A DNA stretch of 6,127 nt, from the IMG/VR virus record IMGVR_UViG_2690316099_000002, positions 1 to 6,127 of that record; one strand, 5' to 3'. Under the pieces are notes generated by a model that had not been told where the DNA came from, did no database searches, and saw nothing but the letters and a program-made list of their open reading frames with translations. The DNA is from a virus (Duplodnaviria; Heunggongvirae; Uroviricota; Caudoviricetes). The position numbers were made by a program, and so were the translations under genes. Positions 1 to 6,127 of the stretch are shown here, piece by piece (position 1 is the stretch's first letter; each line of letters opens with the position of its first letter).

Positions 1-69
1 GTGCAGAAATCCCTCCGGTTAAGGATTAAATTTTATTTACAGTGCTGGATTTAATTATTCAGATTTGGA

Positions 70-345
70 TTATGCTTTCTCTTCACTCCGGTATACAAGA
101 ATTACAACGTCACCTCTGCTAATCACGCGAGCTGGCTCTCCTGGTTCTATACTGTCAATATCGAAGGTCTCAAAAAACGCATTCATTGCCTTCTGCCGCT
201 GCGTCTGTTTACAGCGTTTATTCCATTCTTTCAGTAACATCAGTGACAGCCACCGCCATGAGCAGAACATGATGTAGCACCAACCAAGAAGCGCCAGCCC
301 CGTATTGAGGGCCGTACCAATCGTCATTGTTGCGTCGATATTCAC
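70..345 (-). CDS. Small hypothetical membrane protein (91 aa from GTG at 345; alternative ATG start at 327)
   Basis: ORF with a hydrophobic stretch (TIGTALNTGLALLGWCYIMFCSWRWLSLMLL), consistent with one or two transmembrane helices. GTG at 343-345 overlaps the upstream stop (GTGA) and is preceded by AGGAGGAGG with a short spacer. No family recognised. Confidence 0.55.
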   Translation of the reverse strand: MNIDATMTIGTALNTGLALLGWCYIMFCSWRWLSLMLLKEWNKRCKQTQRQKAMNAFFETFDIDSIEPGEPARVISRGDVVILVYRSEEKA

Positions 346-638
346 TGTACCTCCTCCTGGAAAATAACTGCATGCCCCAGTTTCTCCGCCAGCGCCAGTT
401 CTGCCTTAGCGCCTGCTGACCGCTGCCAGCCTTTCAGCATGTAAATCGCATCCACACAACGAATCATTGCCATGCAAATATCCATGTAGTGCGGCTGTGT
501 CAGCCCGTCCGGAAGTACTGCCGGGTTTAAGACGGTATGCCCTTCCCGTTTCAGTTCCTCTTCTGCCTTGTGAAACGCCTCACGGTTGAAATTTTCATAC
601 CCCGTCATTGGACCGGCGATATAAACCCTCACCCTCAC
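342..638 (-). CDS. DUF4406-like prophage protein (nucleoside 2-deoxyribosyltransferase-like fold), 98 aa
   Basis: The N-terminus MRVRVYIAGPMTGYENFNREAF...GHTVLNP matches the conserved YIAGPMTG...N...F...G..V.NP signature I recall for DUF4406. GTG start at 636-638 overlaps the upstream stop (GTGA); AGGAGG lies about 7 nt upstream. Confidence 0.7.
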   Translation of the reverse strand: MRVRVYIAGPMTGYENFNREAFHKAEEELKREGHTVLNPAVLPDGLTQPHYMDICMAMIRCVDAIYMLKGWQRSAGAKAELALAEKLGHAVIFQEEVQ

Positions 639-1051
639 GCCATCACCTCCTGAAAATTACCCTGATAAAACGCCAGCACACGCTGCATAACCTTGCTTTT
701 CCGGCACTCGAGACAGATTATGTTCTGACGCCTGTCGTAGTGGCGTATCTCTCCATCTGGTAATGAATAAATCAGGCCAGGGTCGCTCTTCTTTTTCGCT
801 GCACCTTTAGACATCTCTTTATGGGCTTTTATCCAGTCTTTACGTGCCTGCTCAGAAGGGAATATTCCATGCCCTGAACCATATACAACACCACTGTCTA
901 CCAGTTCTTTCGCCAGAACTTCAATCAGATGTCTCGTCGCCCCTGTTTCATTTTCCAGTTGTTTACGCGTTTTCCTACCATCTCTGCGTACCAGTTCCAC
1001 AATACGCGCCTTTACTTCTTCCCGTTGTTCGGGAGTAAAAACTTTTACCAT
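635..1051 (-). CDS. Hypothetical phage protein, 138 aa, possibly DNA-binding
   Basis: ATG at 1049-1051 preceded by AGGAGGA at good spacing, 14 bp downstream of the preceding gene's stop. Basic, charged N-terminal region; no confident family match from sequence alone. Confidence 0.7.
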   Translation of the reverse strand: MVKVFTPEQREEVKARIVELVRRDGRKTRKQLENETGATRHLIEVLAKELVDSGVVYGSGHGIFPSEQARKDWIKAHKEMSKGAAKKKSDPGLIYSLPDGEIRHYDRRQNIICLECRKSKVMQRVLAFYQGNFQEVMA

Positions 1052-1065
1052 AAGTCCTCCTGAAA

Positions 1066-1569
1066 TTACTTCACAACCCTCAGGTGTCTGACATTCGAAC
1101 GCCAGCTCTCCCAGTTAAAATTCACCCAGCGACCACCGTTCATGACCATGCGGTCCATCACACGCTCGCCAAGAAGCGTACTCATCGCTACGTGGTTCAG
1201 GTTCGTCAGCATTCCGACACTACGCATCGAAGCAGTTCTGCGGTCGACTATCTGGTTCAGTGTGACCTGCTCGTTGCGCGTATCCCGCTGCATTCCGATT
1301 TCATCCAGGACAAGCAGGTCAACATCACACAACCCCTGTAAAAATTTTTCGCCTGAGTTTTTGTTGTCGTAGCTGTTGTGTAACGCCAGCATCACATCAG
1401 CCACCGTTATCACAATCACGCTGCGACCTTTCGCCAGAAGATGATTGCCAATGGCGGCTGCAAGGTGGTTCTTTCCGGTACCCGGCTTACCGCTGAACAC
1501 AAAATTCGTGCACCCTGTCATCAGTTCGTCAGCGATGGATTTTGCCTGGACGTCAAATACAGTTTCCAT
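1066..1569 (-). CDS. N-terminally truncated DnaC-like AAA+ ATPase (about 167 aa from ATG at 1569; the ORF track extends to a TTG at 1587)
   Basis: Roughly 80% identical to residues ~89-248 of the upstream 248-aa DnaC-like protein. Walker A (GKPGTGKNHLAAA) and Walker B (DLLVLDEIG) are intact. Own ATG preceded by GGAGGA; the DnaB-binding N-terminal region is absent. Confidence 0.75.
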   Translation of the reverse strand: METVFDVQAKSIADELMTGCTNFVFSGKPGTGKNHLAAAIGNHLLAKGRSVIVITVADVMLALHNSYDNKNSGEKFLQGLCDVDLLVLDEIGMQRDTRNEQVTLNQIVDRRTASMRSVGMLTNLNHVAMSTLLGERVMDRMVMNGGRWVNFNWESWRSNVRHLRVVK

Positions 1570-2073
1570 TAAAACATCCTCCAACAAAAATTACTTCACA
1601 ACTCCCGGAAAGCTGACATTTGAACGCCAGCTATCCCAGTTAAACGTCACCCACCGACAACCGTTCATGGTCATGCGGTCCATAATCCTCTCACCAAGAA
1701 GCGTGCTCATTGCGGCATGATTCAGGTTTGTTAACATCCCGACACTGCACAGTGATGCTGTCCGGCGATCAATTATCTGGTGCAATACCACCTGCTCGTT
1801 TTTCGTCTCCCGCTGAATGCCTATTTCATCCAGGACCAGCAAATCAACCCCGCAAAGCTCCTGTAAAAATTTTTCACCGGATTTGCCGTTGTCGTAGCTG
1901 TCATGCAACACGCTCATGACATCAGACTCGGTGACGATAATCACGCTGCGCCCCTTCGCCATCAGCCGGTTACCCATCGCCGCTGCAAGGTGATTTTTCC
2001 CGGTGCCGGTTTTACCGCTGAACACAAAATTCGTGCACCCTGTCATCAGTTCGTCAGCGATGGATTTTGCCTG
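1066..2073. repeat. Tandem direct duplication (period about 525 bp, roughly 80% identity) spanning the AAA+ portions of the two DnaC-like genes
   Basis: 1066..1548 aligns with 1591..2073 at the protein level and, by eye, at the nucleotide level. Both copies end ...AATTACTTCACAAC. Identity is estimated from the translations, not computed. Confidence 0.7.
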
Positions 2074-2337
2074 GTTCAGCGCATGTTTTTGCCCGTCGTT
2101 CTGCACCTGATAATTCGCAAACGAGCATTTGCTGTGCAGAGGCTGGATGCCCGAACGATTCAGGATTTTTTCCACCCGCAACTGGCGATTCTGGCGGTTG
2201 ATCTCCTCGCTACGTTTTCGCCCTTCTGCCAGTTGCCACTCGCGCCACTCATCCACTGTCCGGTACGGCGCGATTACATGCTGCGGGGTCAGCTTACGGA
2301 TACGCTCAAGAACACCACCTGCCGCGATATTTTTCAT
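1591..2337 (-). CDS. DnaC-like replicative helicase loader (prophage YdaV-type), 248 aa
   Basis: Full-length similarity to DnaC as I recall it: N-terminal region with NRSGIQPLH...CSFANYQV, Walker A GKTGTGKNHLAAA, Walker B DLLVLDEIG, C-terminal LGERIMDRM. ATG at 2335-2337, 6 nt downstream of the preceding stop. Confidence 0.85.
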   Translation of the reverse strand: MKNIAAGGVLERIRKLTPQHVIAPYRTVDEWREWQLAEGRKRSEEINRQNRQLRVEKILNRSGIQPLHSKCSFANYQVQNDGQKHALNQAKSIADELMTGCTNFVFSGKTGTGKNHLAAAMGNRLMAKGRSVIIVTESDVMSVLHDSYDNGKSGEKFLQELCGVDLLVLDEIGIQRETKNEQVVLHQIIDRRTASLCSVGMLTNLNHAAMSTLLGERIMDRMTMNGCRWVTFNWDSWRSNVSFPGVVK

Positions 2338-2343
2338 GGCCCG

Positions 2344-3309
2344 TTACCCCCTGAACCCCGGCGGAATTTCGGTATCCGGCTCAGAAATATGATTCACACA
2401 ACGCTGTACAGACGAACGCCCCAGGCGGATAACCAGTTCATCCCATTTTCCGCGAAGCTTTGACGGACTCATGATATTTTTTACCCAGAATGGATCCCGC
2501 TGCGCCCGACCAAACATTTCACAAATTTGTCTGTGAGTTCTGCCATCCAGCATCCGCATTGTGCGCACGTCGTTGGCCCATGCGGTCCAGTTGGGTTCTT
2601 TCGGTCGCGAAATCTCGCCATCATCGCTGGCGGCCTGCTCGTAAAGACTCACGATTCGCCCCCAGATCCACTGCGCACACGCCAAATCTTCCTGGTTGCC
2701 CCACTGGCGTTTTTTTGCACTGAACACAACCGCGTCAGGGTGTCGGGTTAAAAAATCCTGTTCAACCGTCTGCGGGTCCGGTTGCGAAGCTTCCGGACGA
2801 GAAGTGTTTTTATTCTCTGTAGTAATCTCTGTTGTATTCTCTGTAAGATCATCAGGCCATTTTGACCCGATGACATTGAGTCGTTTTGAACCAATGGAAC
2901 GTGCCATTTTGGCCTCTTCCATCGTGTCATTCTGACCTGATGGAGCAGCGCATTTTGACCTGATGGATTCGCTCACTTTGCCACCATCTAAAAGCTCGCT
3001 CTCGTAATTAATCGTGTAAAAATTAGTCATATCACGCTTTGATTTATTGAGCTTTTCGCAACGCAAAAGCCCCAGCGTTTTCAGACTGGCAAATGCGCGT
3101 TTTAACGTTGACTCTGACCAGAACGGGAACTGCTCCAGCCATTGTTCTGTTGTGTTATAAATCCAGCGAACACCATCACATTCCATGCCGGAACCGGTAT
3201 CTCTCAACCAGTAGTGCAGTTGTTGCAAAACAATGGCTTCGTTTAAGCCAATTTTCATTGCCAGCTGCGTGTTTATAACCAGTGGGCGTTCAGCAAAAAG
3301 AAGGCTCAT
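2344..3309 (-). CDS. Phage replication initiation protein (replisome-organiser / O-like, N-terminal HTH), about 321 aa
   Basis: Long ORF immediately upstream of the DnaC-like gene, the usual position of the initiator. N-terminal HTH-like segment (LAMKIGLNEAIVLQQLHYWL). The track's start at 3363 is a TTG; the first ATG is at 3307-3309 (used here), overlapping the upstream gene by 20 bp. Start is uncertain; another ATG lies at 3256-3258. Confidence 0.7.
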   Translation of the reverse strand: MSLLFAERPLVINTQLAMKIGLNEAIVLQQLHYWLRDTGSGMECDGVRWIYNTTEQWLEQFPFWSESTLKRAFASLKTLGLLRCEKLNKSKRDMTNFYTINYESELLDGGKVSESIRSKCAAPSGQNDTMEEAKMARSIGSKRLNVIGSKWPDDLTENTTEITTENKNTSRPEASQPDPQTVEQDFLTRHPDAVVFSAKKRQWGNQEDLACAQWIWGRIVSLYEQAASDDGEISRPKEPNWTAWANDVRTMRMLDGRTHRQICEMFGRAQRDPFWVKNIMSPSKLRGKWDELVIRLGRSSVQRCVNHISEPDTEIPPGFRG

Positions 3310-3811
3310 AATTCCATCCAGCTTTTTGTTGGTATTGCTGTCGATACGCAAGTTTGAAAGCAATGGCTTTTTCTATAAGTTCGTCAGTTTCACGATCCAC
3401 TACAGCTGGATCTGCAAAAAGCAGCCCGGACTCCACCACATCGCCATATTCTTTGTTTAACCCGGCGATCATGTACGTGATGCTTTTTCCGTCACTAATT
3501 TCACGATACAACCTGAAATCATTAATCCGGATAGCCTCCATAATTGCCGGAATCAGCGCCGTGAATTTTTTCCGCTTATCCCTGGTGTCGATAGCTTTCC
3601 AGCGTTCGAATATCTTCACCCGGTTAACGCCCAGCGCCCGTTGATCAACCTCGCCATCATTAAACGTGACGCGTTGAACATCGATGTTCGGGCGTTCTTT
3701 CAGAGCCCAGAATGCTTCCGTGATTAATATCGTCGCCTGCTCCTGTGTCATTCCTGGTCGGCACACCCAGGCATCCAGAGCCTCACAAACCTGTTCAGGG
3801 GTGATTTTCAT
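3290..3811 (-). CDS. YdaT-like protein (putative toxin YdaT family), 173 aa
   Basis: Sits directly downstream of the Cro-like gene, as ydaT follows ydaS in Rac-type prophages. ATG at 3809-3811 overlaps the DicC-like 3' end by 17 bp. Family assignment is from position and general sequence character, not a verified alignment. Confidence 0.65.
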   Translation of the reverse strand: MKITPEQVCEALDAWVCRPGMTQEQATILITEAFWALKERPNIDVQRVTFNDGEVDQRALGVNRVKIFERWKAIDTRDKRKKFTALIPAIMEAIRINDFRLYREISDGKSITYMIAGLNKEYGDVVESGLLFADPAVVDRETDELIEKAIAFKLAYRQQYQQKAGWNYEPSFC

Positions 3812-4022
3812 TGTTCAACCGCCCCGCCCGCTTCGTCTTACGATATTCGTCATAAACTTTGGGATCATACTGAAGCTCCCCGCCAGATGCCTCTTGCAGG
3901 CGCATCGCGCGACCTTCAGGAACCAGTTCCCCCCATTGAGAAACAGCAGATGGATCAACACCAGCAGCTTTCGCTACTTTGGCTTTCGTCCCATAAAAAT
4001 TAATTACGTCTGATTTAAACAT
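3795..4022 (-). CDS. dicC: DicC-like Cro-type regulator, about 75 aa
   Basis: The C-terminal two-thirds (GELVPEGRAMRLQEASGGELQYDPKVYDEYRKTKRAGRLNNENH) closely match my recollection of E. coli DicC. ATG at 4020-4022 preceded by GGAGGGG. The track's longer start at 4049 is a TTG lying inside the operator-like palindrome. Confidence 0.8.
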   Translation of the reverse strand: MFKSDVINFYGTKAKVAKAAGVDPSAVSQWGELVPEGRAMRLQEASGGELQYDPKVYDEYRKTKRAGRLNNENHP

Positions 4023-4034
4023 CACCCCTCCAAA

Positions 4035-4050
4035 ATTGAGTTTTCTCAAT
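4035..4050. promoter_or_regulatory. Operator-like inverted repeat ATTGAG-N4-CTCAAT in the dicC/dicA divergent promoter region
   Basis: Perfect 6-bp inverted half-sites with a TTTT spacer. A near-identical copy lies at 4568..4583. CTCAAG/TCAAGG half-site-like direct repeats follow at 4058..4080. Confidence 0.55.
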
Positions 4051-4099
4051 AGTAATCACTCAAGGAATCTCAAGTCAAGGGTTATTAAGATATCTAAAT

Positions 4100-4507
4100 A
4101 TGAACGAGAAAACTTTAGGTCAACGAATTAGAGAAAGACGCAAACAGGTTGGTTTAAGTCAAAACGATTTAAGCAAAGCCGCTGGCGTATCTGGCTCATC
4201 AATTTCACTATGGGAAAGCGACCATACAGCCCCGCGTGGGCAAAATTTGCATCGCCTGGCTGAGGTATTGCAATGTTCACCAACTTGGATACTGTTTGGT
4301 GACGAGGATAAAACACCAGATCCACCAGTTGCACTCAACAGCGCCTTAGACTTATCGGAAGATGAGTTGGAGATGTTGCGATTGTATCGCGCACTTCCAA
4401 AATCAGAGCAGCAAGCACAAATCAGCGAACTCCGTGCCCGCGTTGAGAATTTTAATCGCCTATTCACCGAGCTACTAGAAGCTCGCAAACGTAACAAACA
4501 TCAGTAA
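4100..4507 (+). CDS. dicA: DicA-like XRE-family HTH repressor (CI-type), 135 aa
   Basis: N-terminal HTH (GQRIRERRKQVGLSQNDLSKAAGVSGSSISLWE) and the motif LQCSPTWILFGDEDK, plus a C-terminal segment SEQ...RARVENFNRLF.ELL.A, all close to my recollection of Qin DicA, which has the same length. No clear Shine-Dalgarno upstream of the ATG. Confidence 0.9.
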   Translation: MNEKTLGQRIRERRKQVGLSQNDLSKAAGVSGSSISLWESDHTAPRGQNLHRLAEVLQCSPTWILFGDEDKTPDPPVALNSALDLSEDELEMLRLYRALPKSEQQAQISELRARVENFNRLFTELLEARKRNKHQ

Positions 4508-4524
4508 TCCCCTTCACAAATTTT

Positions 4525-4558
4525 AAAGCCTTACATTTCAATGTATTGGCTTTATTTT
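4525..4558 (+). terminator. Putative intrinsic terminator downstream of dicA
   Basis: AAAGCC (4525-4530) pairs with GGCTTT (4548-4553), with additional inner pairing ACAT/ATGT, followed by ATTTTG. The stem is AT-rich, so it is probably a weak terminator. Confidence 0.4.
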
Positions 4559-4567
4559 GCATTAAAT

Positions 4568-4620
4568 ATTGAGTTTTCTCATTAAAAGCACTTGACCAAC
4601 AGTCATGAGAAAACTAAATT
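4568..4620 (+). promoter_or_regulatory. Second operator-like repeat (ATTGAGttttCTCATT, 4568..4583) with a candidate sigma70 promoter for the leftward operon
   Basis: The repeat matches the 4035..4050 site at 15 of 16 positions. It is followed by a -35-like TTGACC (4592-4597), a 17-bp spacer and a -10-like TAAATT (4615-4620). Confidence 0.45.
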
Positions 4621-4696
4621 ACCACCCATCAAGACACCGCACGGTGTTCTCAGCAAACAGTTCCGCTACCCGGCGTTAAGGGGAAATGAGGTCAAC

Positions 4697-4849
4697 ATGG
4701 ATACTATCGATCTTGGTAACAACGAATCTCTGGTGTACGGCGTGTTTCCCAACCAGGACGGCACATTCACCGCGATGACGTATACCAAAAGCAAAACGTT
4801 TAAAACCGAAGCTGGCGCGCATCGCTGGTTAGCAAGAAACTCTGACTGA
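4697..4849 (+). CDS. ydfA: YdfA-like small protein (DUF1391), 50 aa
   Basis: ATG at 4697 preceded by GAGG. Size and position (first gene after dicA, same strand) match ydfA of Qin. The longer track ORF from 4592 has no RBS and includes the promoter region. Confidence 0.65.
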   Translation: MDTIDLGNNESLVYGVFPNQDGTFTAMTYTKSKTFKTEAGAHRWLARNSD

Positions 4850-4860
4850 TGAGGTTGACG

Positions 4861-5499
4861 ATGGAATTTAAAGATTTACCTACTTCAATCCAGGAGATTG
4901 CAGCACACACACTTCGTCATCGTCTGAACGAACTTGCATTGGAATCGGTAACGAAAAAAGACACTGATAATATGGCTCGTAATGTGCGCGATGCGTTTAC
5001 CGGATTGTATTTCTGTGCGTCTGTAAATAAACACGACTCAGATAGTGTGGCAAATAAAATTGCAGAAACGACAGCGCAAAACATCAATACGAAACCAACG
5101 GAAGAAGAAATTGATCAGTTTGCTCATGATGCTGGTTTAAAAAACAAGAAAGAAAAATCGCCATATGCGGGGAACATGTTTGTTTATGACAATCTCATCA
5201 GAATTCGTGGCGAAATTCCGGCGGAATACCTGGCAAGAGTCCATCAGGCATTGCTTAAAAATCTGGAAACAGAATTATTTGATGGCAACACTAACGGTTT
5301 CTTCATGGTATCAGGCCTTGAGAAAGACTGGGATGCAGAAAAACGCTGGAATGTTGCCACATGGTTATTCAGTAACAGAGCCGCTGCCCTGGAAGCTTCG
5401 GCATGTATTTGCGGCCTGTTCTTAACAGACCACAAATATAATCTGGATGTGTACAGTTATATTTACGCTGAACACGGTCCGCTCTGGATTGACTGGTAA
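4861..5499 (+). CDS. Hypothetical protein, 212 aa, in an AT-rich insert (candidate moron)
   Basis: ATG at 4861 preceded by GAGG with about 7 nt spacing. The track's start at 4849 overlaps the ydfA stop (ATGA) and is an alternative. Visibly lower GC than the replication module. No recognisable family. Confidence 0.7.
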   Translation: MEFKDLPTSIQEIAAHTLRHRLNELALESVTKKDTDNMARNVRDAFTGLYFCASVNKHDSDSVANKIAETTAQNINTKPTEEEIDQFAHDAGLKNKKEKSPYAGNMFVYDNLIRIRGEIPAEYLARVHQALLKNLETELFDGNTNGFFMVSGLEKDWDAEKRWNVATWLFSNRAAALEASACICGLFLTDHKYNLDVYSYIYAEHGPLWIDW

Positions 5500-5709
5500 T
5501 TATAAGGAAACACCAGCAGGGCCGAGGCGACCAACTGAACGATTAAAATCAATAATGCCATTATAAAGGACATTATTTAATTTATCGTCGAATGCTGATT
5601 CTGTGAGCCTCAACTCTGAATGAGTTTTTAATAACCCTGATTGCCTGAGTTGATTTACCAGGCATTCAATCTGTTTTTCAATAAGCGGATTTCTTTTTTT
5701 GTTTGGCAT
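5500..5709 (-). CDS. Hypothetical small basic protein, 69 aa, convergent with the 212-aa ORF
   Basis: ATG at 5707-5709 preceded by GGAGGA at 4-5 nt. Very AT-rich. Its stop is immediately adjacent to the stop of the plus-strand 212-aa ORF (5497-5499 / 5500-5502). Basic N-terminus (MPNKKRNPLIEKQ) suggests possible nucleic-acid binding. Confidence 0.55.
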   Translation of the reverse strand: MPNKKRNPLIEKQIECLVNQLRQSGLLKTHSELRLTESAFDDKLNNVLYNGIIDFNRSVGRLGPAGVSL

Positions 5710-6044
5710 TTTATCCTCCATTGAGGTTCTGGGTTAAAAATGGAGACCAACACGCTGCCACGTGTGGTCGTGCGCCGGACACGGATAAGAATCCGGTACT
5801 GACAGTTTACTGAAAGGATATATCCCTGAAAAGCCAGGGCATAACGCGAAAGCGCACGGCGAAGTTCGTCTCACTGTACGGTGTCGTTAAATTTAATTCG
5901 ACCGTGCGCTTCCGGTTGTGGCACTCCGCGAAATGGCGCGGCGGTAAGTATGGCGGGGTTATTCCTCCCCCATTGAGACACCGGGTTGCCAGGTTGACCA
6001 TACGCTTAAGTGACAACCCCGCTGCAACGCCCTCTGTTATCAAT

Positions 6045-6097
6045 TTTCTGGTGACGTTTGGTGGTATCAGTTTTACTCCGTGACTGCTCTGCTGCCC
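6045..6097 (+). ncRNA. dicF: DicF-like antisense sRNA (ftsZ-targeting cell-division inhibitor RNA)
   Basis: TTTCTGGTGACGTTTGGTGGTATCAGTTTTACTCCGTGACTGCTCTGCTGCCC matches the roughly 53-nt E. coli DicF sequence as I recall it, apart from two C-to-T changes in the terminal stem. It is followed by TTTTT. Confidence 0.7.
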
Positions 6098-6102
6098 TTT
6101 TT
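6058..6102 (+). terminator. Intrinsic terminator forming the DicF 3' end
   Basis: GGTGGTA (6060-6066) can pair with TGCTGCC (6090-6096) using G-U wobbles, with inner CAG/CTG pairing, followed by a T5 run at 6098-6102. Confidence 0.55.
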
Positions 6103-6127
6103 AAAGTGAATTTTGTGATGCGGTGAA

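Follow-up and report, generated by a model that had tools for sequence, protein, structure and literature searches.

Gene map of the control region

The window, by which we mean the whole stretch of DNA that was analysed (6,127 nt, positions 1–6,127 of IMG/VR record IMGVR_UViG_2690316099_000002), contains an ordinary lysis/lysogeny control region of the kind found in Qin-type prophages of Escherichia coli. A plus-strand gene for a DicA-type repressor appears to face a minus-strand, rightward operon that would encode a DicC-type Cro, a YdaT-family regulator, an O-like initiator and a DnaC-like loader (Table 1). The YdaT-like gene occupies the position of cII, between cro and the replication genes and divergent from the repressor gene. 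The same order of repressor gene, divergent cro, YdaT-like gene and replication gene or genes is common to Qin, Rac and the Raoultella, Citrobacter, Klebsiella and Stenotrophomonas phage loci, and most of the region is present in 775 complete E. coli genomes.

Table 1 Features of the control region, in window coordinates
Feature	Coordinates	Strand	Basis or remark
Replication initiation O-like gene, next in operon	2344..3309	-	phrog_391 'replication initiation O-like', 6.6e-95
Overlap of ydaT-like 3' end and O-like start, 20 nt	3290..3309	-	O-like start at 3309 from RefSeq homologue in prophage L001
YdaT-family transcription regulator, 173 aa	3290..3811	-	PF06254, phrog_163; intact form of K-12 YdfX
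DicC-type Cro-like gene, 75 aa	3795..4022	-	P22_Cro and DicC models
Overlap of cro and ydaT-like gene, 17 nt	3795..3811	-	Direct sequence reading
YdaT-box-like site TTGAACAATGAAAATCAC, predicted operator	3801..3818	-	ydaT ATG within 6-nt spacer
-10-like hexamer TACGAT, predicted PRE-like promoter	3839..3844	+	20 bp from box
PR-like sigma-70 promoter candidate, cro-ydaT-O operon	4049..4078	-	TTGACT-18-TACTAT, consensus match only
DicA-type (CI-like) repressor gene	4100..4507	+	Divergent from cro; DicA NF007257, HTH_3

The repressor scores 238 bits against the NCBIfam DicA model NF007257 (cut-off 101) and 60.9 bits against HTH_3, and is 56% identical to K-12 DicA; a Shine-Dalgarno sequence was not found upstream of its gene (dG -3.3). 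In a standard promoter scan of positions 3200–4600, the PR-like candidate was the sole promoter-like site, and the cro ATG lies 27 nt downstream of it. The only RNA matched in the Rfam search was DicF. An oop-like antisense RNA was considered for a terminator-like hairpin at 3234–3250 and ruled out, the hairpin lying inside the O-like gene with no overlap of ydaT.

The Cro-like gene, which starts with the ATG at 4022 and ends with the TGA at 3797–3795 (open reading frame list and sequence), has a strong Shine-Dalgarno sequence (dG -9.8). Its product, called DicC-like in the first-pass annotation, bears out that label, matching PF14549 P22_Cro at 64 bits (cut-off 30.2) and NCBIfam DicC NF007282 at 167.8 bits (cut-off 130), with 72% identity to K-12 DicC. 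Over the last 42 aligned residues the only difference from the K-12 protein is at the very end (P in place of S), and the N-terminal helix-turn-helix part diverges. A DicC-type partner in place of a YdaS-type one had been presented as unexpected and as belonging to a different Cro family, neither of which held up. In K-12 Qin itself, DicC precedes YdfX and the overlap is again 17 nt, and YdfX was identified in 2025 as the YdaT homologue of Qin in the DicC operon (PMC11879457). The pairing of a DicC-type Cro with a YdaT-family regulator is found in existing annotation and in the literature. K-12 YdaS exceeds the cut-off of P22_Cro, and the Cro of the window matches YdaS_toxin at 21.4 bits, under the cut-off of 30; judged by these profile scores, DicC-type and YdaS-type Cro proteins are related. 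The observation beneath the earlier claim, that YdaT is paired with differing Cro proteins, stands: the same YdaT module lies behind different Cro types. Both DicC-type and YdaS-type cro genes are found before near-identical YdaT genes, and in five loci a YdaS-type cro before the same YdaT likewise ends in NNENH and overlaps ydaT by 17 nt.

K-12 Qin resembles the window in having dicA divergent from dicC and ydfX, an identical dicC/ydfX overlap, a YdfX that is 89% identical over 93 aa, a DicC at the identity given above and the DicF RNA downstream of dicA. It differs in that YdfX is a truncated remnant of 96 aa, whereas the gene in the window is intact, encodes 173 aa and is followed by replication genes. 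The helix-turn-helix part of Cro and most of the repressor also differ from those of Qin, and the window is therefore of another immunity type.

The YdaT-family protein

The 173-aa protein is a member of the YdaT family, as had been proposed. The profile searches matched it to PF06254 YdaT_toxin at 25.6 bits (cut-off 21) over residues 59–131 and to phrog_163 'CII-like transcriptional activator' at 7e-41 over residues 1–155. In RefSeq and phage records the protein is labelled 'toxin YdaT family protein', 'cII' or 'CII-like transcriptional activator'. The NCBIfam search returned no model matching the YdaT-like protein, and Phage_CII PF05269 gave no match at E values up to 0.01. The protein is an analogue of lambda CII by position and inferred role, not a member of PF05269. 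As for the Pfam score itself, it is only modestly above the cut-off.

A profile built from the window's own subfamily alone reaches canonical YdaT-like proteins, and a wider family profile matches two solved structures of YdaT, 8bt1 (1e-26) and 3c4r (about 2e-25). The family profile was needed: a single-sequence search of the PDB was marginal, with 8bt1 at an E value of 0.2 and armadillo repeats at 0.07. Direct similarity to Rac YdaT is confined to 29 residues (41% identity, E 4e-6), and a genome scan with a narrower family alignment returned 10 loci only. An AlphaFold2 model from a 26-sequence alignment had a pLDDT of 86.7, as compared with an unusable 51.5 from a 7-sequence alignment. The top Foldseek matches of this model were two chains of 8bt1 (probability 1.00, TM-score 0.66 normalised by target length). 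The model predicts helices at residues 23–36 and 57–73, connected by a loop of residues 37–56, and C-terminal helices at 111–130 and 135–164.

The YdaT proteins of Rac and CP-933P (8bt1; also 3c4r) belong to the same Pfam family, share the predicted fold and occupy the same slot after cro, and their recognition helix contains an invariant Arg (R60 in CP-933P, R57 in Rac) with a neighbouring Trp. In an alignment of 27 sequences, Rac YdaT among them, the equivalents here are R70, which never varies, and W71, which hardly varies; they correspond to Rac R57 and W58. Rac R57 stabilises DNA binding and W58 maintains the fold (PMC11879457). Rac YdaT also requires H56 for binding; the equivalent residue here is E69, and the DNA specificity may therefore differ. 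Compared with its Rac and CP-933P counterparts, the protein has about 19–29% identity over the aligned length and a longer α2–α3 loop (37–56), and its predicted C terminus comprises two helices rather than the one of CP-933P. The partner Cro is of the DicC type and the two genes overlap, whereas in Rac they are separated by a 22-nt gap.

Homology backs the start codon of ydaT, the ATG at 3811–3809, with M1 present in all of the 26–27 aligned sequences and I3 and E6 in most of them. This codon is preceded by a moderate Shine-Dalgarno sequence (dG -7.2).

A predicted operator and a proposed opposing promoter

The cro/ydaT overlap coincides with a predicted YdaT-box-like operator, which lies in a register of -7 from the ydaT ATG, as does the Rac box ATGATTCATGAAAATCAA. 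The Rac box has been footprinted with DNase and has the ydaT ATG in its spacer (PMC11879457). The register is also that of the boxes in other lineages, including CP-933P, for which it was deduced from primer sequences. The box has three mismatches to the consensus TTGATT-N6-AATCAA, with half-sites TGATT and TGAAC in place of the symmetric TTGATT/AATCAA. Matches to the consensus with up to three mismatches are not enriched in the whole window (4 found, 4.8 expected), so only the position and register of this one match are informative. The point at which homology between DicC-type and YdaS-type upstream genes breaks down is the left edge of the box. A weak 23-nt direct repeat at the junction (3817–3839 and 3873–3895, 74%) was regarded as G+C-rich coding sequence.

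All 15 of the lineages compared have a -10-like TAnnnT element on the strand opposite to ydaT, at a distance of 20–21 bp from the box, and so have 39 of a further 51 distinct regions; because not every lineage is independent of the others, these counts overstate the significance. The combined loose pattern of box and -10 element was seen once in the window, compared with 0.095 expected per shuffled window. This conserved spacing points to a PRE-like promoter in which the centre of the box is near -41.5. Its predicted start, near 3851, would place a transcript antisense through cro towards the repressor gene. The standard promoter scan returned no plus-strand promoter in 3200–4600, and a relaxed scan of that strand gave weak candidates only, with 7 of 12 matches; the PRE-like candidate has a poor -35 and matches the -10 consensus at 4 of 6 positions. 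The proposal consequently draws on comparative conservation and not on match quality. Such a promoter adjoining the box differs from the proposals of the Rac and CP-933P authors: the YdaT-dependent promoter of Rac was placed about 190 bp from the box (PMC11879457), and in the CP-933P paper the predicted PRE lies upstream of the box.

Prophage L001, which is 99.9% identical, and phage HannyBb each have, upstream of xis/int, a second box with the same asymmetric half-sites and a -10-like hexamer. In Rac and in a Stenotrophomonas phage, boxes of the local type precede xisR and the integrase operon, respectively; with a strict pattern, no second box was found near int in Klebsiella phage ST405-OXA48phi1.2. 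The YdaT regulators of enterobacterial and Stenotrophomonas phages may, at about even odds, share a single promoter design, in which an 18-bp box is centred some 41.5 bp upstream of a weak start with the -10 element at 20–21 bp. Each phage would have two copies of the design, a PRE-like one antisense to cro, in which the box often encloses the ydaT start codon, and a PI-like one before xis/int; at both, the Qin-type clade would read the asymmetric TGATT-N8-TTCA.

Lambda cII (PF05269) and P22 c1 likewise lie between cro and O, and the leftward, PRE-type activator role of their products is documented for YdaT homologues (PMC9986795). The activator site would, as in lambda and P22, overlap the -35 region, with a second site of the same kind before int. 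In contrast to lambda CII, which uses a TTGC direct repeat, the published YdaT structure is a 222-symmetric tetramer on an inverted repeat. As regards further regulators of the lambda pathway, we know of no CIII gene or FtsH control for the YdaT family.

Gene overlap and probable regulatory role

The ydaT ATG and the cro TGA define an overlap of exactly 17 nt, confirming the length given in the first-pass annotation. The proposed comparison across prophages showed the overlap to be retained in 78 of 80 IMG/VR loci with a 93–99% identical YdaT-like protein, all of them close kin, and to be present in dicC/ydfX of K-12 Qin and in CP-933P-type phage loci. Spacing between cro and ydaT across the family ranges from -20 to +55 nt, and the overlap is therefore not a family-wide trait. 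From the arrangement of the junction, tight translational coupling of the two genes is plausible, since coupling is common where stop and start signals overlap. The next junction is likewise overlapping, by 20 nt (annotated also in phages HannyBb and PhiR42_1), and the O-like gene has a weak Shine-Dalgarno sequence (dG -5.5). A competing view, to which we assign a little under an even chance, is that the overlap plays no part in coupling and is a by-product of the joint at which cro and ydaT were recombined, ydaT being translated from its own ribosome-binding site, as its moderate Shine-Dalgarno sequence would allow. In our preferred reading too, the overlap would arise because the box and the start region belong to the ydaT module and any cro joined upstream reads through to the next stop, which would also account for the shared ...NNENH tail. 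The homology breakpoint at the box edge, the occurrence of that tail in both DicC-type and YdaS-type cro genes and the variable spacing across the family favour such an origin, as does the presence of the same TGAACAATGA in another frame in Raoultella and Citrobacter loci, where a 4-nt overlap results; retention of the overlap in nearly all relatives speaks for coupling, albeit among close kin. This question concerns the coupling step only, and either answer is compatible with the main explanation.

The YdaT-like product had also been described as a putative toxin, a description that the evidence does not sustain. A type II toxin-antitoxin-like module, with YdaT-like toxin, Cro-like antitoxin and an overlap that fixes their ratio, would be in keeping with the Pfam names YdaT_toxin and YdaS_toxin, with the RefSeq name and with the toxicity reported for ectopic Rac ydaS/ydaT expression (PMC5700377). 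These toxin names, however, are the legacy of a 2007 prediction. According to Jobling, a 2010 study yielded no evidence for such a pair, and overproduction of lambda CII is also toxic, yet CII is no toxin (PMC5917428). Jurenas et al. found no toxic effect of CP-933P YdaT (PMC8630535), and published work describes no toxin-antitoxin behaviour of the CP-933P pair and speaks against it in the case of Rac (PMC5917428, PMC8630535). The 173-aa protein is predicted to fold as a DNA-binding domain of the helix-turn-helix kind, as in 8bt1, its gene takes the place of cII in a lambdoid early region that is complete and gives no local hint of a toxin-antitoxin system, and the occurrence of the same YdaT gene behind unrelated cro alleles argues against a co-adapted neutralising pair. 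We consider a toxin-antitoxin module highly improbable. Less remote, though still unlikely, is that the protein is a YdaT-family DNA binder whose main work is repression or autoregulation at the start codon of its own gene, or control of host genes, and which does not activate synthesis of repressor and integrase. The start codon of ydaT and some of the ribosome-binding region fall within the predicted box, a position from which transcription or translation could be blocked, Rac YdaT binds the racR-ydaS intergenic region and the promoter of the host gene rcsA (PMC11879457), and 'repressor' is the term applied to CP-933P YdaT in PMC9986795. Binding at the Rac box, however, caused little change in ydaT expression and up to 29-fold higher leftward transcription (PMC11879457), and activation fits better both the conserved -10-like element on the opposite strand, at 20–21 bp, and the second box before xis/int in four lineages.

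In our preferred reading, the window comes from a Qin-type lambdoid prophage of E. coli, of which it contains the immunity and early-right region, and YdaT serves there as a CII-like regulator; for this explanation as a whole we estimate a probability of about 0.85. The earlier suggestion of a CII-like factor is upheld by the cII slot, the phrog_163 match and the documented behaviour of the family, YdaT having been described as a CII analogue that activates a PRE-type promoter (PMC8630535, PMC9986795, PMC11879457). DNA binding and promoter activation have been demonstrated for the Rac and CP-933P homologues, and by analogy with them we infer every activity of the 173-aa protein itself. The protein would be a transcription factor that binds DNA through a POU-like helix-turn-helix, with a modelled recognition helix at about residues 57–73 (R70, W71), and its C-terminal helices may serve oligomerisation. 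Made together with Cro from the PR-like transcript, it would take the part of lambda CII, bind the predicted box over its own start codon and, from there, activate the weak leftward promoter 20 bp away. The leftward transcript would run antisense through cro into the repressor gene, and a promoter of the same design upstream of xis/int, outside the window, is probably activated too. The 17-nt overlap may permit translational coupling of the regulator to Cro.

The finding itself matters little: the prophage switch was read correctly, but it is common and has been annotated before. Annotation gains modestly, since the window has in intact form the gene that survives in K-12 as the remnant ydfX, and the 'toxin' label, a recognised misnomer, should be dropped. 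The design offers a testable wiring proposal for the whole YdaT family: a box at or just upstream of the regulator's own start, an opposite-strand -10 at a fixed distance and a second copy before the integrase operon. If the shared two-site design is true, the YdaT-dependent promoter of Rac would adjoin the box and not lie 190 bp away as published, and the YdaT family would be a CII analogue with a CII-like regulon. If confirmed, YdaT would represent a convergent replacement of lambda CII acting on the same two targets.

Layout of the window and the YdaT-family protein

The DicF small RNA in the window confirms a Qin-type layout, dicA–ydfA–...–dicF. The two DnaC/IstB-like ATPase copies adjoin one another directly and share 79% identity over the C-terminal 160 residues of the full copy, in contrast to the single copy in the sister prophage L001; this suggests that the window arose by unequal recombination between two related prophages.

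Features of the window, with the predicted strength of anti-Shine–Dalgarno (anti-SD) pairing at four of the genes
Feature	Position	Strand	Basis	Anti-SD pairing
DUF4406 protein	342–638	-		
DUF977 protein	635–1051	-		
DnaC/IstB-like ATPase, truncated second copy, 173 aa	1066–1587	-		
DnaC/IstB-like ATPase	1591–2337	-	family match	
O-like replication initiator	2344–3309	-	family match	-5.5 kcal/mol, weak
YdaT-family protein, 173 aa	3290–3811	-	ORF, family matches	-7.2 kcal/mol, moderate, bulged
Cro-like protein, 75 aa	3795–4022	-	ORF, family matches	-9.8 kcal/mol, strong
DicA-type repressor	4100–4507	+		-3.3 kcal/mol, no Shine–Dalgarno
DUF1391/ydfA-like gene		+		
DicF small RNA	6046–6097	+	Rfam RF00039, 66.9 bits, E 1.5e-13	

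The assignment of the 173-aa protein to the YdaT family, made in the first-pass annotation, is borne out by profile searches: it exceeds the Pfam YdaT_toxin cut-off (25.6 bits, cut-off 21), its residues 1–155 match phrog_163, 'CII-like transcriptional activator' (7e-41), and a 26-sequence profile matches both YdaT structures that have been solved (1e-26 and 1.7e-25). A subfamily-only profile, built from E. coli, Citrobacter and Raoultella sequences and searched against 1.84 billion proteins, found 82 representatives, its matches including full-length proteins that shade into YdaT of the Rac-like and CP-933P-like kinds. The AlphaFold2 model obtained with the 26-sequence alignment (pLDDT 86.7) has helices at residues 5–16, 23–36, 57–73, 77–97, 99–106, 111–130 and 135–164, and its sole specific Foldseek matches in the PDB are chains of 8bt1, 'YdaT transcription regulator (CII functional analog)' (probability 1.00). 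Rac YdaT residues R57, which stabilises DNA binding, and W58, which maintains the fold (PMC11879457), align with R70 and W71. A Pfam search found no match to lambda CII (PF05269). The last two helices align with most family members, the Rac sequence being gapped across part of residues 111–164. The solved CP-933P YdaT has a single oligomerisation helix, whereas two C-terminal helices are predicted here, so the long form may have a different oligomeric state.

The earlier proposal of a CII-like component of the lytic switch is right and agrees with the published CII-like role of YdaT; its description as a putative toxin does not stand, the toxin–antitoxin idea having been dismissed in the same papers (PMC5917428, PMC8630535, PMC9986795). 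The DicC/YdaT-like arrangement is already known and annotated. In K-12 Qin, ydfX follows dicC with a 17-nt overlap identical to that in the window, and the 96-residue YdfX shares 89% identity with the N-terminal 93 residues of the 173-aa protein, whose gene is therefore intact in the window. YdfX is named in PMC11879457 as the Qin homologue of YdaT, encoded in the DicC operon. The stretch 3200–4600 has matches in 2715 of 5426 complete E. coli genomes, 775 of which cover 80% or more of its length; in RefSeq the genes there go by 'toxin YdaT family protein', 'Cro/CI family transcriptional regulator' or 'DicC'. Homologues 93–95% identical to the 173-aa protein are encoded in fourteen phage genomes. 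Phage HannyBb names its homologue 'CII-like transcriptional activator', and phage PhiR42_1 names its own 'cII', beside 'Cro / Protein DicC'.

Exchange of cro alleles upstream of ydaT

The Cro-like protein is DicC-like, as first annotated (167.8 bits against the curated DicC model, cut-off 130), and also matches P22_Cro (64 bits, cut-off 30.2). That this represents a Cro family different from YdaS appears to be true only loosely: the protein scores 21.4 bits against YdaS_toxin, under the cut-off, K-12 YdaS exceeds the P22_Cro cut-off (36.8 bits), and BLASTP aligns the two proteins at 2e-5. K-12 DicC is 72% identical to the window protein overall; the final 42 aligned residues are the same save the last (S in K-12, P in the window), whereas the helix-turn-helix (HTH) part has diverged. 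Correspondingly, K-12 Qin DNA is 90% identical to window positions 3532–3932, from the N-terminal part of ydaT through the C-terminal half of cro, and diverged over 3933–4507 (the cro HTH part, the operator region and most of the repressor gene), with only one 67-nt island of 78% identity. This mosaic pattern is that of an immunity-cassette swap with one breakpoint within cro.

The start ATG of the 173-aa gene (3811–3809) and the cro TGA (3797–3795) make the reported 17-nt overlap exact; a second overlap, of 20 nt, joins the 173-aa and O-like genes. Among 80 IMG/VR loci whose YdaT-like gene is 93–99% identical to that of the window, a DicC-type cro lies upstream in 73, in three different N-terminal (immunity) versions, a YdaS-type cro (PF15943, 41.7 and 34 bits) in 5, and no intact ORF of at least 60 aa in 2. 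The pairing with DicC, taken at first as unusual, is not. At least three DicC N-terminal types in these loci share one C-terminal half. Wherever cro is intact (78 loci), both the 17-nt overlap and the Cro C terminus ...NNENH(S/P/T) are retained; by this comparison, cro alleles have been exchanged upstream of one YdaT module. In phages vB_EcoS-813R8 (L106) and Klebsiella ST405-OXA48phi1.2 (L107), an annotated 'DicC' or Cro gene precedes CP-933P-type YdaT genes (92% and 60% identical to the 8bt1 sequence) and the overlap is again 17 nt, so it recurs in another YdaT subfamily.

Translational coupling is plausible over both overlaps of the window, and is not a family-wide feature. The homologues in Raoultella and Citrobacter (42–45% identical) each overlap the preceding YdaS-type gene by 4 nt, and cro–ydaT spacing in more distant members ranges from -20 to +55 nt.

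Candidate operators (palindrome TTGAG-N4-CTCAA, repeats TCAAG(G/T)) lie in 4036–4080. On the + strand of 4078–4100, a TAAGAT hexamer ends 8 nt short of the repressor ATG; with no Shine–Dalgarno sequence present, the repressor mRNA may be leaderless, as are those of lambda cI and PaaR2 (PMC8630535). A terminator-like hairpin, TGGCTT-CGTTT-AAGCCA (3234–3250, both strands), followed on the + strand by a T-rich run, lies near the start of the O-like coding sequence, within its 5' part and clear of ydaT, and has no match in Rfam.

A predicted YdaT-box and promoter-like spacing

The footprinted Rac YdaT-box, ATGATTCATGAAAATCAA, holds the ydaT ATG inside its 6-nt spacer (PMC11879457), and the CP-933P ATG is likewise in the box spacer, as deduced from primer sequences (PMC8630535 supplement). 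The window has a predicted box, TTGAACAATGAAAATCAC, at 3801–3818, which shares the register of the Rac box (-7 relative to the ATG), and related boxes occupy this register in other lineages. Loci with a DicC-type cro and loci with a YdaS-type cro become homologous in DNA sequence from the left edge of the predicted box onwards. A single module thus takes in the box, the start codon and the final codons of any upstream cro, which accounts for the constancy of the overlap and of the C-terminal tail. With 3 mismatches the window box fits the consensus weakly, matches of this kind are not enriched overall, and the position of Rac H56 is E69 in the 173-aa protein; the box is accordingly regarded as a predicted operator with altered specificity.

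On the strand opposite ydaT, each of 15 lineages has a TAnnnT hexamer 20 or 21 bp past the box, and the other 52 spacings together have only 7. The upstream sequences of these lineages are unrelated, though not every lineage is independent of the others; they comprise the window, a sister locus of the YdaS type, Rac, a CP-933P-like phage, phages of Klebsiella and Stenotrophomonas, and loci from Raoultella, Citrobacter and metagenomes. Among 51 further distinct regions from another clade, 39 have the hexamer at 20–21 bp, and several of the remaining 12 carry near -10 hexamers, such as GATAAT or TAATAC, at roughly that distance as judged by eye. For the loose pattern TGA-N10-TCA, 20–21 bp, TAnnnT, shuffling gave an expectation of 0.095 per window, against one occurrence in the window. 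We infer a conserved promoter-like design. Assuming a start 7 nt past the hexamer, the box would be centred near -41.5; in the window, hexamer TACGAT (3839–3844, +) would direct a start near 3851 and a transcript antisense across cro towards the repressor gene, like lambda PRE. The -35 regions of the proposed promoters are poor, and the published papers, PMC11879457 among them, assign their promoters other positions.

A second box-like site upstream of excisionase and integrase genes

In L001, 99.9% identical to the window, the pattern recurs as CTGATTTTTAATGTTCAA, 20 bp and TATTCT (12003–12046, +), stopping 28 nt short of the excisionase ATG, with the integrase gene next. Phage HannyBb has the same second box ahead of its own, different xis/int genes (L192 from 4780, -). 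Both second boxes have the asymmetric half-sites TGATT and GTTCAA, as in the window box. K-12 Rac carries a near-perfect box, CTGATTATTAATAATCAA, 21 bp and TAACAT, just upstream of xisR–intR (L193 2004–2021, -), and a Stenotrophomonas phage has a box upstream of its integrase operon (L195 5105–5122, -). These box-like sites, outside the window and each with a -10-like hexamer 20–21 bp further on, suggest a PI-like promoter under YdaT control before xis/int; no mention of integrase or excisionase was found in PMC11879457. The predicted box in the overlap, the fixed -10 spacing and the second box ahead of xis/int are refinements of a modest and testable kind, and concern the YdaT family, not the window in particular.
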